Shown here piece by piece: positions 46,047-51,484 of a stretch of 64,000 nt of DNA. Source of the DNA: Patescibacteria group bacterium (GTDB taxonomy: Bacteria > Patescibacteriota > Patescibacteriia > UBA1558 > GWA2-36-10); the NCBI GenBank assembly GCA_028718865.1, contig JAQUKX010000005.1:368-64367 (forward strand), given 5' to 3'. Position 1 is the stretch's first letter. Each line of letters opens with the position of its first letter. A program made the position numbers and the translations under genes. Under the pieces are notes generated by a model. It did no database searches, was not told where the DNA came from, and worked only from the letters and a program-made list of their open reading frames with translations.

Positions 46047-46126
46047 ATTTCGCCTGAAAAATAAAAAAACGCACCCTTTACAAAATGAGTAAAATATATT
46101 ATTATTGAGCGGCCTTATTTAATACT

Positions 46127-46218
46127 GGAGAGGTGGCTGAGTGGTTGAAAGCGGCACCCTGCTAAGGTGTTACTCCGATTTTTTGGGGTCGAGGGTTCGA
46201 ATCCCTCCCTCTCCGCCA
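46127..46218 (+). tRNA. tRNA-Ser (GCT) with long variable arm, CCA encoded
   Basis: GGAGAGG acceptor pairs with CCTCTCC-G-CCA. Anticodon loop CTGCTAA. T-arm GGGTTCGAATCCC. Confidence 0.9.
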
Positions 46219-46263
46219 TAAGCCATTGCGGTTTATGGCTCCGCCAGTAAAAATTCTTGACAC

Positions 46264-46339
46264 GGTCCCGTAGCTCAACGGATAGAGCGTTTGGTTGCGG
46301 TCCAAAAGGTTGCAGGTTCGATTCCTGCCGGGATCACCA
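46264..46339 (+). tRNA. tRNA-Arg (GCG), CCA encoded
   Basis: 76-nt cloverleaf. Acceptor GGTCCCG/CGGGATC with a G:U. Anticodon loop TTGCGGT. T-loop TTCGATT. Confidence 0.75.
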
Positions 46340-46388
46340 CACTGCGCCCCTCATTTCATTCGGAGCTTCGTGTGGTTTTATAACCACA
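46336..46388. repeat. left copy of a roughly 50-bp direct repeat (its partner is at 50063-50113)
   Basis: accacactgcgcccctcatttcattcggagcttcgtgtggttttataaccaca is about 78% identical to gccacactacgctactcattatattcgtagcttcgtatggcttgtagccaca, by hand alignment. Confidence 0.55.
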
Positions 46389-46462
46389 ATGAAATCCAAT
46401 ATCAACAATGAAGTGTGTCACCCGAGGTCTTGACGAAGGGTGACAAATTAGAAGAAAATGCG

Positions 46463-46747
46463 ATGTATTACGTCTATATTTTACATTTAAACAATAGCTC
46501 TTTTTATACTGGGTACACTATAAATATTATCAAAAGATTGAAAGAGCATAAAAACGGAAGAGTTAAATCAACAAAAAATTTTAGACCAATCAAATTAGTT
46601 TGGTATTGTATTTTTCCATCTCGTTTACAAGCAAGAAGGTTTGAGAATTATCTAAAAACTGGCTCTGGTCAAGCATTTAGAAATAAAAGGTTAATAAAAA
46701 TTAATTTCATGGAGAGTTGGCAGAGCGGTCGAATGCGGCGGTCTTGA
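46463..46747 (+). CDS. GIY-YIG nuclease family protein (start at MYYVYILH); its 3' end overlaps tRNA-Ser(TGA)
   Basis: [18 protein letters not shown]...RLKEHKNG...WYCIF...[14 protein letters not shown] motifs. The ORF reads through into the tRNA gene at 46711. Confidence 0.65.
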
Positions 46748-46798
46748 AAACCGTTAGACCGAAAGGTCTCGGGGGTTCGAATCCCTCACTCTCCGCCA
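46711..46798 (+). tRNA. tRNA-Ser (TGA) with long variable arm, CCA encoded
   Basis: GGAGAGT acceptor pairs with ACTCTCC-G-CCA. Anticodon loop CTTGAAA. Variable arm TAGACCGAAAGGTCTC. Confidence 0.9.
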
Positions 46799-46828
46799 CA
46801 TCGTGCTAGCCCGAGGACCTTGAGACAC

Positions 46829-46906
46829 TCGAGCGCTCGAGCATGTTAAAAAACAACCCCTTCGACAAGCTCAGGGCTGTTTTTTTGTATGTATAATTTT
46901 TATTAA
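46829..46906 (+). terminator. 14-bp palindrome plus intrinsic terminator downstream of tRNA-Ser(TGA)
   Basis: ctcgagcgctcgag palindrome, then aacaacccc...gggctgtt hairpin followed by T7. Confidence 0.4.
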
Positions 46907-46920
46907 CTCCTTGCTATTTT

Positions 46921-47970
46921 TTAGGGGGGGGTAGTATAATAGTCTTGTATGAAAGAATTTCTTAGATCATTACTAAAGTCATAAGCATTAGCGTGACTCA
47001 AAACACCCAAGTAAGATTGTAATGATTGTTCGTAAGTATATTTAGTTATTTTATCATCTTCATATTCATTTCTACGCAATTCTAATTTCCTTATCATCCT
47101 TTTCTTAGTATTAGCTCTAATGAGTTTGTGGTAAGGGAAAATAATATGACCCAGAAAATCAATACCTTGGCTATATTTACGAATAGATACTTTCTTAGGA
47201 TGTAATTGTAATAATAATTCATTAGATAAAAATTTAGATATTGGCTTCAAAATATTTTTTAAATACTCTTTGTCATCAGAAACAATTATAAAATCATCAG
47301 TATATCTGACATAATGCTTAACTTTCAATTCTTGTTTTATATACTGATCTAGCTTGTTCATGTAAATATTAGCGAAAATTTGTGAAGTGAGATTACCAAT
47401 CGGTAAGCCTTTCTTTTGAAATATATTAGAAGAATAACTATTAATTATATCTTCCATTAACCACATGGTATCTTTATCTTTTATACGTTTACAAAGAACA
47501 ACTAAAAGAACATAATGATCCACTGAATCAAAGAATTTCTTTATATCACATTTTAAAGCATAACAATTCCTTGTATTATTTTGACTTACTTTTCTTAATA
47601 TTTTAGCTAGAGTGTCCACTCCTTTGTGGCTACCTTTACCTTTACGGCAAGAAAATGAATTAGGAATAAAAGTCGGTTCAAATATTGGCAGCAATATTTT
47701 ATAAACAGCGTGGTGTAAAATTCTATCTCTAACCTTTGCCTTATGAATATGTCTAAGCTTAGGATCAGTAATATAGAAACCAGTATATGAACCATGACTA
47801 TAACTTTTATTGTCTAATTCCCTATGTAATTTAAAAACGTTTTCCTCTAAATTAAACTCAAACTTTTGGACATCAATTTTATGCCTTTTGTCTTTTTTAA
47901 ACTCATCCCAAGCTAAAAATAAATTTTTCAGTGAAATAATATCTTTAAATATATCATTATAAACTTTCAT
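46921..47970 (-). CDS. diversity-generating retroelement (DGR) reverse transcriptase
   Basis: 349-aa RT with no maturase or endonuclease domain. Conserved N-terminus (LFLAWDEFKKDKRHK...FEFNLEENVFKLHRELDNKSY). Motif 4 LPIGNLTSQIFANIYMNKLD carries the DGR-specific [ILV]GxxxSQ. Catalytic YTDDFII. A cognate TR/VR pair is adjacent. Confidence 0.9.
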   Translation of the reverse strand: MKVYNDIFKDIISLKNLFLAWDEFKKDKRHKIDVQKFEFNLEENVFKLHRELDNKSYSHGSYTGFYITDPKLRHIHKAKVRDRILHHAVYKILLPIFEPTFIPNSFSCRKGKGSHKGVDTLAKILRKVSQNNTRNCYALKCDIKKFFDSVDHYVLLVVLCKRIKDKDTMWLMEDIINSYSSNIFQKKGLPIGNLTSQIFANIYMNKLDQYIKQELKVKHYVRYTDDFIIVSDDKEYLKNILKPISKFLSNELLLQLHPKKVSIRKYSQGIDFLGHIIFPYHKLIRANTKKRMIRKLELRRNEYEDDKITKYTYEQSLQSYLGVLSHANAYDFSNDLRNSFIQDYYTTPP

Positions 47971-48321
47971 ATGGACAATTTTGACATTCCAATTTTTAAG
48001 AAAAGCTACGATTTATACAAAACACTACATGAGTATAGAAACTCAATTCCCAAAAAAGATAGATTTACTATTTTTGAGCGGTGTGAGAATATCTTACTTG
48101 ATATCATAGCCAACATACTTTTGGCTTCCAGTCAAAAACCTAAAGATAAATTACCAACTCTAAACAATATAAGTTTAAAATTAAACCTATTAAGAGTATT
48201 TATTCGTCTGCTCAAGGACATCAAAGCCATAGACAATAAGAAATATGTTAGTCTGGAAAGCATGGTTGATGAAATTGGTAAAATGCTTGGTGGCTGGATA
48301 AGATCTACTAAGATCAGATAA
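47971..48321 (+). CDS. avd: Avd (accessory variability determinant; four-helix-bundle family), encoded divergently from the RT
   Basis: 116-aa basic protein. C-terminal EIGKMLGGWIRS resembles the BPP-1 Avd ...EVGRILGSWIAR as I recall it. YDLYKTLHEY...IPKKDRFTIFERCENILLDIIANILLA fits the four-helix-bundle family pattern. Its ATG directly abuts the RT ATG in the palindrome CATATG at 47968-47973. Confidence 0.8.
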   Translation: MDNFDIPIFKKSYDLYKTLHEYRNSIPKKDRFTIFERCENILLDIIANILLASSQKPKDKLPTLNNISLKLNLLRVFIRLLKDIKAIDNKKYVSLESMVDEIGKMLGGWIRSTKIR

Positions 48322-48357
48322 ACGAAAAGGTGCTAAAAAGCACCCTTTCGTAACAAT
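48322..48357. other. hairpin immediately 3' of the TR (in TR sense); also usable as a terminator for avd
   Basis: acgaaaaggtgc-taaaaa-gcaccctttcgt, a 12-bp stem with one mismatch. Confidence 0.5.
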
Positions 48358-48366
48358 GAGAAGATA

Positions 48367-48495
48367 CTTCGGGACGAAGGCCGACACCGAGCCATAGTTG
48401 TCGTTGGCATTGTTGACCCAGTTGGTGTTGAACTTGACCTTGCCGTCGTTGAAGTTGAAGATTGGCGCGTTGTTGAACTGACCATCGGCATCCGG
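48367..48495 (-). repeat. DGR template repeat (TR); the adenine-bearing sense strand is the minus strand, the same orientation as the RT
   Basis: 129 bp aligning to 48905-49033. In the TR frame it encodes PDADGQFNNAPIFNFNDGKVKFNTNWVNNANDNYGSVSAFVP. It is AAC/AAT (Asn)-rich, the classic TR signature. Confidence 0.85.
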
Positions 48496-48833
48496 ATTAT
48501 TACTTCTGTCCATCTTTTATCACCAAGTATTGGGCTTTACTTCTTATTGGCTATAAGACTATATTCTCTTTACTTTGAATTTTATTTGGCAGCAACTAAT
48601 AAAGTATCTGCACCAGACAAAAGCAAGCAGTATCTCCTCAAAATAACACTCTCTTAAAAATCTTGATTTTTAAGACTCTGGTTATATATCTTTAAAGAGA
48701 AAGTCAGGCGATGGCAATTCTTAAAATGCCATTCACTAGCCCAACTCAAAAATATTATAACAAATTATTTAAACAAAATGAAAAGAGGGTTACCCACGGT
48801 ACGTGGTACCTATGGATAACCCCCCTGTGGCGA

Positions 48834-48852
48834 GTCACCGCTACGCGGTGAC
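48834..48852. other. GC-rich hairpin about 50 bp downstream of the VR
   Basis: gtcaccgc-tac-gcggtgac, a perfect 8-bp stem. Confidence 0.5.
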
Positions 48853-48898
48853 AAGGTCTCAAAGGCTCAAAAGAACTCAAGCCTTCAAGAGTTCAAGG

Positions 48899-49780
48899 CT
48901 AGGACTGCGGGACGAAGGCCGACACCGAGCCACAGCGGTCGCCGGCACCGTTGACCCAGCGGGTGCTGACCTCGACCTCGCCGCCGCTGAAGTGGAAGAA
49001 CGGCGCGCTGCGGAACTGACCATCGGCATCCGGAGCGAACTCGTCGCCCGCACAGTCGATCCAGAGATCGTCGTAGTGCTTGAGACGCTCGGGGTGGGTG
49101 AGCAGCATGATGGCGATCTCGTAGGCACCGAGACCGAACTCGTCGGAGGTGAAGACCTCGCGGGCTCGGCGGACGGAACTTCCACGGTGACGGAGACCGA
49201 ACTGGACCGGAACGAGCAGGATGTCGTGCTCCGATTGCTGGTCGCCGATGAGATCCAGCGCGTGGTTGGTGCGAGCCGATCGCTGCAGGTACTCGGGGCC
49301 GAGCTGGCCCTCGCGGTAGTTGTGGAACTTGCCGCCACGGGTCTGCTTGATCAGATCGAGGACGATCTGGACAGCCTCGCCGTAGGTCAGCGCGATCTTC
49401 TCCCACCTCGGGATGGCGAACCAGCCCTCGGCACCATCCGGCAGAACCTGACCAGCAACGTCCTCGTCCACCCGCATCGGGATGCCCGAGAAGAACTGGC
49501 GCAGGATCTTGCACTGCTCGGTGATCGGCTTGACCACGTAGCCCGACAGGTAGCCGTACTTGGAGGAGACCTCCTCGTCGGCGTACTGGTTGGAAACCGA
49601 GAGTTCCCTGATGGCCGCGATGATGCTGGCCTGGAACTCGCCGCCTCTCGAGATGAGCTTTTGGATGCGATCCTTGTCCAGGTTCGCTTCCTGAAGTGCC
49701 CGCTGAGCTGCGTCTTCGACGAAACGCTTGTATTGCTTGAGTTGACCGGACGTGATCGACGTGTTGGTCGTCATCGTCAT
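48899..49780 (-). CDS. DGR target protein (VR at the C-terminus; no signal peptide) with anomalously high GC
   Basis: RBS AGGAGG upstream of ATGACGATGACG. 293 aa ending ...PDADGQFRSAPFFHFSGGEVEVSTRWVNGAGDRCGSVSAFVPQS, collinear with the TR translation. Codon third positions are overwhelmingly G/C, unlike all neighbouring genes. Confidence 0.8.
   Translation of the reverse strand: MTMTTNTSITSGQLKQYKRFVEDAAQRALQEANLDKDRIQKLISRGGEFQASIIAAIRELSVSNQYADEEVSSKYGYLSGYVVKPITEQCKILRQFFSGIPMRVDEDVAGQVLPDGAEGWFAIPRWEKIALTYGEAVQIVLDLIKQTRGGKFHNYREGQLGPEYLQRSARTNHALDLIGDQQSEHDILLVPVQFGLRHRGSSVRRAREVFTSDEFGLGAYEIAIMLLTHPERLKHYDDLWIDCAGDEFAPDADGQFRSAPFFHFSGGEVEVSTRWVNGAGDRCGSVSAFVPQS
48905..49033 (-). repeat. 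DGR variable repeat (VR)
   Basis: By hand alignment to the TR there are 21 mismatches over 129 bp, 20 of them where the TR sense strand has A (T on the + strand). The 3' end carries an identical GC-rich IMH-like segment ggctcggtgtcggccttcgtccc, then cag in the VR versus aag in the TR. Confidence 0.85.
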
Positions 49781-50035
49781 ACCTCCTATTAAATCGCTGG
49801 AATGCTGTCCAGTGCAGTCTCATACTCCCTATGAGATGAGCTTTTTATGTGCTATTTAAAATTAACGCACAAAAAGCACACCTCATAGAGATTGCCTTGA
49901 ATTTATTGATATAAAGGACTATTTAAGATTATATTAGTATATCATATTTTAATTAAAATGTCAATATTCAGGATTTTGAATTTTAGCTTGAAGTGCGAAA
50001 TTAAGGCCAGTTTTATAAGGGTCTTAGAGCTAGCA

Positions 50036-50066
50036 CGAGGATGTTCGAATCCCTCCCTCTCCGCCA
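50036..50066 (+). pseudogene. 3' fragment of tRNA-Ser (duplicate of the last about 24 nt of tRNA-Ser(GCT) including CCA); candidate att-site remnant
   Basis: cgaggatgttcgaatccctccctctccgcca. The last 24 nt are identical to 46195-46218, and no 5' half is present. Confidence 0.6.
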
Positions 50067-50113
50067 CACTACGCTACTCATTATATTCGTAGCTTCGTAT
50101 GGCTTGTAGCCAC
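50063..50113. repeat. right copy of the roughly 50-bp direct repeat (partner at 46336-46388)
   Basis: See the left copy. Both contain a small hairpin (tgtggtt..aaccaca / tggcttgtagcca). Confidence 0.55.
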
Positions 50114-50273
50114 AAAAAAACACTAAACGAAAAAAATATCAAAAATCTTCATTGTTACAGATATTAGTAGGAAAAAGTAGCTTGAAGATTTTTTATTATA
50201 AAAATTATAAAATGTGTGTTAAGATAGCTTATTTACAGTAACGTAAAATTTAAACAAAAGATATAACATTACG

Positions 50274-51484
50274 ATGAGAATTGGCTTTTTTACTGAAACC
50301 TACCTACCAGACCTTAATGGAGTGACCGTTAGTCTATCTTTTGTTAAAAAAGAATTAGAAAAAAAGGCCATCAAGTGTATATTTTTGCCCCAAAAATAAA
50401 AAATTATAAAGACGAAGAAAAAAATATTATCCGCCTACGCTCTCTAACAATCCTTAATTCAGAACCAAAGCAAAAACTTCCTGTATCAACCATTGATTTT
50501 CATAAAATTCTTAACCTAAAACTAGACCTTGTTCATGGTCATGGTGGTGGACTTGTCAGTATTATTGGTTATGAGCTAGCCTTAATAAAAGGCTATCCTT
50601 ATATTTTCACATATCATACTTATATAGAAAAATACGCCCATTACTTTTTCTTGAAAAATAAAAACATAAGCTCGCCAATCATTAAAAAAAGTAGCCGTCT
50701 TATGTGCAATTTGAGCGATGCTATTCTAGTTCCAAGTAAAAAAATGAAGACTATCTTACAAAATTATGGTGTTAAAAAAGAAATTTCTGTACTCCCCAAC
50801 CCAATAAACTTAGATCGTTTCAAAAAAGGGAAAAGGGGTTTTCTTAGAAAAAAACTAAACATTACTGATGAAACTTTTATTTTATTAACTGTCTCTCGAC
50901 TAGGTCAAGAAAAAAATATTGATTTTTTAATAAGAAGCTTTTTTGAAGTTTCTAAAGAAAATAAAAAAACAGTTTTAGTAATTGTTGGCGCTGGGCCAGA
51001 AGAAGAAAAACTAAAAAAATTAACAGAAAAATTAGGCTTGGCAGAAAAAATATTTTTTACTGGTTATATTAGCGCCGAAAAAATGCCTGAAGTTTATTCT
51101 GACTCTGATATTTTTGTTTTTGCTTCTACCACTGAAACCCAGGGCTTGGTAGTATTAGAAGCGGCCGCTTGCGAATTAGCAATTATTATTGTTAAAGACG
51201 AGGCCTTTGCTGGAGTAGTAAAAAATGATTTTAATGCTTATATAGTTGCAGAAAACGAGAACTTATTTGCCAAAAAAACATTGGCTTTATTAAATGATAA
51301 TAAAAAAAGAAAACAATTTGGAATTAATTCTAATCAATGTATAAAAGAAAACTTTAATCAAAGCAAAATTATTAAACAACTTGAAGAAATTTATAGCACT
51401 GCTATTGAAATCAGAAAAAATAAACCCAGGCGAACACTTAGATTACGAAATCAAATCAAAAAATTTATTCCCTGGTTTAGCTAG
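50274..51484 (+). pseudogene. GT4-family glycosyltransferase interrupted by a frameshift in an A7 tract (50359-50365); candidate phase-variable gene, or a homopolymer sequencing error
   Basis: Frame 1 (50274-50399) gives MRIGFFTETYLPDLNGVTVSLSFVKKELEKKA-IKCIFLPQK*. The -1 frame gives ...KGHQVYIFAPK... and continues through 51484 with GT4 motifs (VGAGPEEEKL, ETQGLVVLEAAACELAII). One extra A in the A7 run would restore a single ORF of about 400 aa. Confidence 0.7.

Follow-up and report, generated by a model that had tools for sequence, protein, structure and literature searches.

Introduction

How does a diversity-generating retroelement (DGR) come to lie between an intact transfer RNA (tRNA) gene for serine and a loose copy of a tRNA-Ser 3' end, with no integrase beside it? 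The question is raised by a stretch of 64,000 nucleotides from a Patescibacteria group bacterium (GenBank assembly GCA_028718865.1, contig JAQUKX010000005.1, positions 368 to 64,367), referred to here as the window, which covers almost all of a 65-kb contig in a metagenome-assembled genome. Its content is ordinary chromosomal DNA, including type IV pilus genes, thyA, and the genes for IF3, L20, and transfer-messenger RNA (tmRNA). Between 46.1 and 50.3 kb, the left part of the region holds tRNA-Ser(GCT), a 45-nt spacer, tRNA-Arg(GCG), a trailer sequence (R1), a GIY-YIG nuclease gene, and tRNA-Ser(TGA). The right part holds a palindrome with an A/T-run hairpin, a complete DGR, 78 nt of unique sequence, the tRNA-Ser fragment, a second trailer copy (R2), and a frameshifted glycosyltransferase gene. 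A first-pass annotation, made from the letters alone, had described this region as a small tRNA-bounded islet, and the elements that it listed were all found where it had placed them. The tRNA genes were called with ARAGORN and Rfam; the three in the islet are all on the forward strand.

Probable foreign origin of the DGR core

The DGR comprises a reverse transcriptase (RT), the accessory protein Avd, a template repeat (TR), a variable repeat (VR), and a target gene (Table 1). Comparison with other genomes makes it very probable that its core was acquired horizontally. The RT has 5292 relatives at E <= 1e-40; the best 120 of these are 59-82% identical, and the named ones among them are mostly Patescibacteria. 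Its closest relatives, at 82% amino-acid identity, led to two groups of loci, L095/L096 and L090-L094. The first group shares the core at 88% nucleotide identity and has nothing in common with the window outside it, while the second shares it at about 78-84%; the genomic contexts are all different. Identity to L095/L096 varies along the core. It is highest from the promoter to the start codon (95.7%), followed by the non-coding RNA region with the TR (93-95%), the target gene (92.6% overall, 87% at third positions), and Avd (90.6%), and it drops to 80.5% in the RT, whose last ~12 codons lie outside the block common to the relatives. At the other end, homology breaks off exactly at the -35 box of the target promoter (49964), at the same base in L095 and L090, with flanks that are mutually unrelated. 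Since there is little neutral divergence on the target side, this abrupt loss of similarity on the upstream side of the -35 hexamer marks a true breakpoint.

The neighbouring genes tested have no close relatives. The adjacent Na/Ca exchanger has none above 56% identity among 5.8 billion protein clusters, and at 90% identity ClpC, RecG, ThyA, and the pilus ATPase are singletons, while Avd has relatives of at least 90% in other organisms. The RT is also the lowest-GC kilobase of the window (0.27 vs a mean of 0.40). Related loci were compared as a set of 80 metagenomic loci of the DGR family; in most of 20 related loci the GC content of the RT lies within about 0.06 of that of the host, L068 being the exception. 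The earlier suggestion that the DGR is part of a mobile islet is borne out, as regards foreign origin, by the 88% identity across contexts and by the composition of the RT. Horizontal DGR transfer has previously been accepted on the same kinds of evidence, namely atypical GC content and near-identical DGRs in different hosts (PMC5758913).

The GC-rich target gene was considered as a further sign of recent transfer and was set aside. The gene is GC-rich throughout the family (0.63 here and 0.42-0.65 in other loci, with flanks of 0.29-0.63); it equals or exceeds its flanks in 57/57 loci with usable flanks, and is richer in all but L040.

An RT and a target gene that depart so strongly from the GC value of the contig might instead point to an assembly artefact, in which the DGR of another organism was joined to the contig via the short tRNA repeat; Logan contigs do break inside both tRNA-Ser genes. 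Such an error is scarcely credible here. In run SRR22315506, an independent assembly, two Logan contigs match the window at 100% identity and between them span both DGR junctions, one (L097, 46770-48443) connecting the RT to tRNA-Ser(TGA) and the other (L098, 49050-56408) connecting the target gene to the fragment, R2, the GT4 glycosyltransferase gene, and RecG, so the arrangement is not a joining error. Furthermore, the 24-26-nt repeat is shorter than usual assembly k-mers, and GC-rich targets are a trait of the family.

Logan contigs of this run end at 46155, 46770, 48443, and 49050. Two of these ends, 48443 and 49050, enclose the TR-VR interval, in keeping with a heterogeneous VR in the population. 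The last 31-mer of the contig ending at 46770 reaches 46800, the final base common to tRNA-Ser(TGA) and the fragment; this end could reflect a second allele, or a tRNA common to other organisms in the sample.

The tRNA-Ser fragment and the extent of the insert

The terminal 24 nt of tRNA-Ser(GCT) had been reported to recur at 50043-50066, and the identity is indeed exact. No tRNA is predicted at 50043-50066, so the fragment is an isolated 3' piece; its identity starts at the first base of the T-loop and runs to the tRNA 3' end. Copies of the 23-mer TTCGAATCCCTCCCTCTCCGCCA are found at 46196-46218 and 50044-50066 (0 mismatches each) and at 46776-46798 (1 mismatch), with a chance expectation of 0 (100 shuffles). 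By blastn, the fragment matches tRNA-Ser(GCT) at 24/24 positions and tRNA-Ser(TGA) at 25/26, the latter match including the 'CA' past the CCA end. The perfect match to tRNA-Ser(GCT) is weak evidence of origin, because several tRNA-Ser isoacceptors, in many bacteria, end in this 24-mer. In viral contigs of IMG/VR, from many environments, it ends tRNA-Ser(GCT/TGA/CGA/GGA) genes in 85 places and stands as an orphan piece in 35 further places, many of them near contig ends; judging from the upstream sequence, about a dozen of the orphans start at the T-stem or T-loop. At E <= 1, the fragment, the R repeats, and the junctions have no family match in Rfam.

An inverted repeat present at both junctions ties the fragment to tRNA-Ser(TGA) and not to tRNA-Ser(GCT) or tRNA-Arg. 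The left arm starts 3 nt past tRNA-Ser(TGA) and the right arm ends 4 nt short of the fragment; they are complementary at 16/19 positions, a score reached by 0/3000 random 40-nt window pairs from the window sequence. Joined head to tail, the arms give a predicted hairpin with the tRNA piece in its loop (z = -2.8). With the fragment tied to tRNA-Ser(TGA), the insert best supported by these sequence relations is 46799-50042, 3.24 kb containing the DGR alone, with tRNA-Arg (probably resident) and the GIY-YIG gene outside it. A direct repeat of a tRNA 3' segment stands at both of its ends (46775-46800 vs 50043-50068), with an intact tRNA at one of them. The reading of the locus as an insertion-type footprint at a tRNA-Ser gene, with a tRNA 3' duplication flanking the DGR, therefore stands; the boundaries first given, ~3.7-3.9 kb from tRNA-Ser(GCT), give way to the ~3.24 kb, DGR only, set by the junction inverted repeat.

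A wider islet is the alternative that those boundaries imply: a 3.85-kb element would have entered tRNA-Ser(GCT) carrying tRNA-Arg, R1, the GIY-YIG gene, tRNA-Ser(TGA), and the DGR, with the fragment and R2 as the displaced end and trailer of tRNA-Ser(GCT). Although the fragment is 24/24 to this tRNA and its acceptor strand pairs perfectly with the 5' end of the same gene, we consider this event unlikely. Sequence past tRNA-Ser(GCT) bears no such relation to that before the fragment (10/19 inverted, 8/13 direct), whereas sequence past tRNA-Ser(TGA) does, and the 24-mer is in any case generic to isoacceptors that include TGA. The low GC content of the GIY-YIG gene (0.31) speaks for the wider islet, yet GIY-YIG-then-tRNA pairs exist without DGRs, and the block shared between genomes covers 46958-49964 only. 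With R1 on the element and R2 on the host, the similarity of the two and their compensatory changes (below) would have no simple cause. A copy of the 8-mer CTCCGCCA at 46239-46246 does hint at earlier events at the tRNA-Ser(GCT) end. This 8-mer is the 3'-terminal 8 nt of tRNA-Ser(GCT), and the copy stands 20 nt past the gene, adjoining a small hairpin, AGCCAT...ATGGCT, on its 3' side; it may be the scar of an older event at that end.

The age of the trailer repeat

The repeat of about 50 bp that follows both tRNA-Arg and the fragment exists as described and both copies fold into hairpins, with an identity of 75% (40/53) in place of the ~78% first estimated. R1 and R2 thus differ at 13/53 positions, and the alignment, when extended into the T-arms, is 73% identical over 63 nt. 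A 24-nt degenerate core of R has only two matches in the window, R1 and R2 themselves (0 expected), and no match in ~0.7 Mb of related loci. The differences include compensatory changes, C-G to A-T in the first hairpin and T-A to C-G in the second.

The same repeat had been assigned to the same event as the fragment. At the divergence of R1 and R2, by our own calculation, the probability of no change in 24 nt is ~0.001-0.003. The fragment has 0 changes in 24 nt while R is 25% diverged, so the two differ in age; on this comparison R is older than the fragment. Together with the compensatory hairpin substitutions, this speaks against a common event, and suggests that R is probably a structured, functional tRNA trailer that was not part of the event that left the fragment. 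Within the 64 kb of this genome covered here, a generic tRNA trailer was rejected as an explanation, R being absent past tRNA-Asp, tmRNA, and tRNA-Ser(GCT) in the window and from all fetched loci.

A proposed insertion at tRNA-Ser(TGA)

These observations are accommodated by a Campbell-type event in which a recombinase not encoded here would have inserted DGR-bearing DNA site-specifically at the 3' end of tRNA-Ser(TGA), a reading to which we give about as much belief as doubt. From the present arrangement we infer a recombination mechanism, a crossover position, and a pre-insertion state. A compact DGR (target promoter, target gene with its VR, non-coding RNA region, TR, Avd, and RT) would have been acquired horizontally, with tRNA-Arg, R1, and the GIY-YIG gene already resident. 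Before insertion, R2 would have come directly after tRNA-Ser(TGA), as R1 does after tRNA-Arg, giving the predicted empty site ...GGGGGTTCGAATCCCTCACTCTCCGCCACACTACGCTACTCATTATATTCG...; with R trailing both tRNAs at that stage, its presence at both places would be explained without the insertion. Circular DNA with a tRNA-like attachment site, and with the predicted circular junction ...GGTCTTAGAGCTAGCACGAGGATGTTCGAATCCCTC[C/A]CTCTCCGCCACATCGTGCTAGCCCGAGGACC..., would then have been integrated by an enzyme of the tyrosine-recombinase type, leaving 26-nt direct repeats (46775-46800 and 50043-50068) outside and 19-nt inverted repeats just inside. Because the direct repeats differ by one mismatch and tRNA-Ser(TGA) keeps its T7-A66 pair, the crossover would have fallen within the last 12 shared bases, CTCTCCGCCACA, the incoming site bearing the C variant.

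As the first-pass annotation stated, there is no integrase, and no integrase-sized open reading frame (ORF) occurs within 46100-50270; recombinase domains were also not found in 20 further integrase-sized or nearby ORFs tested across the window. With no recombinase in the insert or in these ORFs, the enzyme would have acted in trans or come from a larger element, now decayed. Without a helper to provide such an enzyme, the islet can probably no longer move.

Several observations weigh against such an insertion. The real genes in 46799-50042 are only the RT, Avd, and the target, so that the insert holds no integrase of its own. No circular junction was found, no search of reads having been made. 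A search by synteny found no empty site and nothing that could be compared, the nearest relatives of the flanking gene being at most 56% identical and not syntenic: for the upstream Na/Ca exchanger, an exact look-up returned only a 2.4-kb contig of the same strain, a scan of a genome collection gave one 51% relative on a contig ending at that gene, and three relatives of 54-55% on long contigs have different neighbours. The 24/24 match and the acceptor-strand pairing favour tRNA-Ser(GCT), while the fragment's acceptor strand would form a T-C mismatch with tRNA-Ser(TGA); insertion at the latter thus requires a GCT-type copy on the element as well as a crossover in the last 12 nt. In the rebuilt site the arms would be ~30 nt apart, wider than a classical core site, and they hold the palindrome GCTAGC, through which they also form a 12/13 direct repeat (8/3000 by chance), leaving the geometry ambiguous. 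Finally, most related complete cassettes have no flanking repeats, and the closest ones, L095 and L090, have neither the junction sequences nor a tRNA, so tRNA targeting is not a property of the DGR core.

Two other uses of the junction sequences were considered and rejected. A 13-nt target-site duplication, GCTAGC[C/A]CGAGGA (12/13), has less statistical support than the inverted reading, and there is no transposase. The fragment was considered as a primer-binding site for retrotransposition of the whole cassette since it is complementary to the tRNA-Ser 3' end on the DGR coding strand. This was rejected, since the promoter lies downstream of the fragment and since the -35 box, which a transcript would lack, belongs to the block shared between genomes.

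The main rival, improbable in our view yet far from negligible, dispenses with site-specific integration altogether. The fragment and R2 would be debris from duplication and decay in a tRNA array, and the DGR core would have landed alongside by illegitimate or homology-assisted recombination, for example following DNA uptake. The core has moved without att-like sequences in L095 and L090, the related cassettes mostly lack flanking repeats, and 1.1 kb upstream there is a ComF gene of the competence type; the lack of an integrase and the status of R1 and R2 as old paralogues fit as well. However, had a pseudo-tRNA piece been decaying, 24/24 identity would not be expected of it beside an R2 that is 25% diverged. 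Debris also leaves unexplained the significant inverted repeat at the junctions and the start of the fragment exactly at the T-loop, a feature seen in many of the orphan copies on viral contigs.

The GIY-YIG gene

The first-pass annotation had put forward the GIY-YIG enzyme as a candidate for mobility, and a nuclease cutting tRNA-adjacent DNA could in principle move the islet as homing endonucleases do. The gene does lie within the tRNA cluster, and phage T4 SegB is reportedly a GIY-YIG enzyme in a tRNA gene cluster. The protein, however, is UPF0213-like, with BH0048 and EF2693 as its nearest solved relatives, and its 94 aa amount to a catalytic domain without a DNA-binding part, the non-domain tail being the part that overlaps the tRNA. 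Its gene is outside both the best-supported insert and the block shared between genomes, and 0/80 related DGR loci have a copy beside the cassette (in L071 a copy is ~4.6 kb distant, and in L048 and L057 one is ~6.6 kb from an orphan target gene). Homing, moreover, leaves no flanking direct repeats. The proposal is thus highly improbable, and we judge the gene to be a resident of the tRNA cluster and not the engine of the islet. UPF0213-type GIY-YIG genes directly upstream of, or overlapping, a same-strand tRNA (tRNA-Ser, Asn, Met, or Gln) were also observed in unrelated loci of the candidate phyla radiation (CPR).

Anatomy of the DGR and neighbouring features

Table 1. Features of the islet, by position in the window, and comparable features in related loci.
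Feature	Position	Strand	Remarks
tRNA-Ser(GCT)	46127..46218	+	ARAGORN, Rfam
tRNA-Arg(GCG)	46264..46339	+	ARAGORN, Rfam
R1, trailer of tRNA-Arg	46340..46392	+	hairpins 46346-46350/46362-46366 and 46371-46377/46382-46388
GIY-YIG gene, UPF0213-type	46463..46747	+	Pfam PF01541, E=5e-16; 37-nt overlap with tRNA-Ser(TGA)
tRNA-Ser(TGA)	46711..46798	+	ARAGORN, Rfam
Left direct repeat, attL-like	46775..46800	+	tRNA-Ser(TGA) 3' end plus 'CA'; 25/26 match to fragment
Left arm, junction-proximal inverted repeat	46801..46819	.	TCGTGCTAGCCCGAGGACC; 16/19
Palindrome, 14 nt	46828..46841	.	CTCGAGCGCTCGAG; read from sequence
A-run/hairpin/T-run	46848..46886	.	read from sequence; missed by simple terminator scan
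RT of the DGR	46921..47970	-	Pfam RVT_1 2e-28
Horizontally shared DGR core	46958..49964	.	nucleotide homology to L095/L096, L090-L094
Avd accessory protein	47971..48321	+	NCBIfam NF033474 DivGenRetAVD 88 bits (cutoff 80); Pfam bAvd 7e-19
TR	48366..48496	-	
Non-coding stretch, ~260 nt	48497..48760	-	beside TR, on the side away from Avd
GC-rich hairpin	48834..48852	-	GTCACCGCTACGCGGTGAC; ~50 nt past VR
DGR target gene	48899..49780	-	293 aa; no Pfam family; GC 0.63
VR	48904..49034	-	in target gene; ends 5 nt before stop codon
Target promoter	49936..49964	-	TTGACA-17-TATACT, extended TG
Right arm, junction-proximal inverted repeat	50020..50038	.	GGTCTTAGAGCTAGCACGA; 16/19
Isolated tRNA-Ser 3' fragment; right direct repeat, attR-like	50043..50068	+	T-loop to CCA plus 'CA'
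R2, trailer copy past fragment	50067..50118	+	hairpins 50073-50077/50089-50093 and 50098-50104/50108-50114
Small GIY-YIG + tRNA pairs elsewhere	L006 11660-11908, 11975-12226; L048 1156-1395; L057 1153-1392		no complete DGR cassette nearby
LOOT-bearing loci	L008, L009, L013, L015, L028, L034, L036, L044, L050, L051, L053, L065, L071, L073, L074, L084, L085, L095		
GGCTAGTGCTCAGTTCGAGCGACCGAGAGGC motif sites	L022 1457-1500; L028 6915-6955; L030 7790-7835; L067, L068, L072 (several copies)		

The TR and VR form a pair of 131 nt in which 21/22 mismatches fall at TR adenines (coding strand). In related loci, the relatives of the RT likewise adjoin Avd and a TR. The start codons of the RT and Avd genes, on opposite strands, abut with 0 intergenic bases (CAT followed by ATG at 47968-47973), as they do in related loci, so each promoter must lie within the other gene.

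The non-coding stretch beside the TR retains ~67-74% nucleotide identity in more than 50 related loci, and its relatives give only weak, sub-threshold matches to the Rfam family 'RT-7'; it is probably a structured part of the DGR RNA. For the GC-rich hairpin past the VR, analogy with the Bordetella phage DGR leads us to infer a role in retrohoming. The target protein belongs to a family with 2251 matches at 60-78% identity, of which those with a named source are mostly Patescibacteria. Between the target promoter and the start codon lies a long imperfect hairpin (49822-49895) that has weak microRNA-precursor-like matches in Rfam and is 96% conserved in L095; it may be a regulatory element of the target gene.

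Two architectures are found among the related loci (L008-L087), and the non-coding stretch is conserved in both. The target gene is either on the strand of the TR and RT, as in the window, or inverted with respect to an otherwise identical TR-Avd-RT module, in which case the TR faces the target 5' end. Many related loci have a target gene without an RT within 8 kb.

On the RT side, the palindrome and the A/T-run hairpin (46828..46886) could, from their sequence, act as a two-way terminator separating the tRNA operon and the RT. On the other side, the GT4 glycosyltransferase gene (50274-51484), 3' of R2, is interrupted at an A7 run (50359-50365) by a frameshift, and the independent Logan contig has the same sequence. 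Its GC content of 0.30 is well under the window mean.

Related loci and small RNA genes

In the 80 loci, tRNAs are not regularly adjacent to cassettes. A parallel to the present arrangement is found in L068, in the same DGR family, where a full tRNA-Asn stands on one side of the cassette and an orphan tRNA 3' fragment with the same T-arm on the other; a 38-nt sequence (35/38) adjoins both the tRNA and the fragment. Occurrences of tRNA-Ser near other cassettes (L013, L031, L053, L073, L219) were rejected as further cases, being kilobases off, without a duplicated piece, or in the wrong orientation. In L090 (3251-4759) and L219 (6383-7870), the target gene directly follows a terminase-large-subunit-like gene together with DNA methylases, and L219 also has a LexA/S24-type repressor. 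This phage-like setting fits DGRs that travel on larger elements which may later decay.

The LOOT RNA (Rfam RF03000), or a LOOT-like sequence found via a profile built from Rfam hits, lies within about 0.2-3 kb of the DGR family in 17/80 metagenomic loci as well as in L095. The window and 63 kb of control CPR DNA contained none. At the RT end, cassettes with an inverted RT module have a ~60-nt paralogue that is similar to the 5' end of LOOT and is followed by a terminator. Such partial copies at the RT end of 'type B' cassettes were considered as att duplications and rejected, being about 65-70% identical to the full gene and having a terminator of their own; they are more likely paralogous small RNAs. 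A ~35-nt motif, GGCTAGTGCTCAGTTCGAGCGACCGAGAGGC, was also observed near DGR targets and past tRNA-Asn, always after ...GAGCA (a tRNA-like 3' end), and has no Rfam match. To the eye, this motif (GCTAG...CGAG) was similar to the sequence past tRNA-Ser(TGA), but blastn gave no match to either junction, and homology is not claimed.

It is conceivable, if doubtful, that in this clade the 3-kb DGR forms a separate cassette without a recombinase, its ends being the target promoter and the RT stop codon, and that trans-acting machinery has placed it repeatedly at small-RNA genes: tRNA-Ser here, tRNA-Asn in L068, and LOOT RNA in 18 other loci. If so, the LOOT RNA would be tied to DGR placement or function.

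Comparison with known systems

DGRs are regarded as domesticated and no longer mobile, spreading only as passengers of phages, plasmids, or large islands. On their spread in CPR bacteria, essentially no information has been available (PMC5758913). The present locus is one in which lineages have exchanged a DGR core alone, the breakpoint lying exactly at the promoter, and in which a tRNA-insertion scar is found without an integrase. If the att-like ends are functional, they would give a hypermutation system a minimal vehicle, dependent on a helper, in organisms whose genomes are tiny; if they are a mere relic, this is an ordinary decayed island, and the horizontal origin of the DGR is the one firm result. 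The exact sequences predicted for the empty site and the circular junction are now available for searches of reads.

Among known systems, the locus resembles tRNA-targeted islands and prophages, in which tyrosine recombinases use a T-loop sublocation of the tRNA gene, in that foreign DNA lies between direct repeats running from the T-loop to the tRNA 3' end, with an intact tRNA on one side, and in that viral contigs also hold this tRNA-Ser 24-mer as an orphan piece. It differs from them in having no integrase by either repeat or in the tested ORFs, in its size of 3.24 kb with a DGR only, and in the one-base mismatch between the repeats. Cis-mobilizable elements (CIMEs), such as those related to ICESt1 of Streptococcus thermophilus, are reportedly integrase-less elements flanked by att sites. 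The likeness here lies in att-like repeats around a short cargo without recombination genes, whose movement would need a helper; the differences are that the cargo is a DGR and that there is no known helper element. A GIY-YIG homing endonuclease cassette, by comparison, is a nuclease with a DNA-binding domain that travels in the mobile segment, unlike the bare domain encoded beside this insert.

The DGR island of Legionella pneumophila Corby and the DGRs of prophages are likewise cases of a DGR as cargo of horizontally moving DNA, but these vehicles are large and have their own integrases, whereas here the unit is reduced to the DGR. Loss of a provirus with retention of its DGR has been proposed before, in a study that also described the DGR clade of CPR bacteria, to which the present copy belongs, as almost entirely cellular-encoded (bioRxiv 10.1101/2020.04.01.020958). 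With the DGRs of CPR bacteria and Patescibacteria (clade 2 of Roux et al.; the CPR set of Wu et al.) this copy shares the RT, Avd, and an adenine-specific TR/VR pair, and the DGR itself shows no difference; the tRNA-bounded setting is particular to this copy, with one analogue in L068. The locus is a modest advance: foreign DNA that carries a DGR and lies at a tRNA gene is the product of a known kind of event, and here it takes an unusually minimal, integrase-less form in a lineage where the spread of DGRs had been undocumented.

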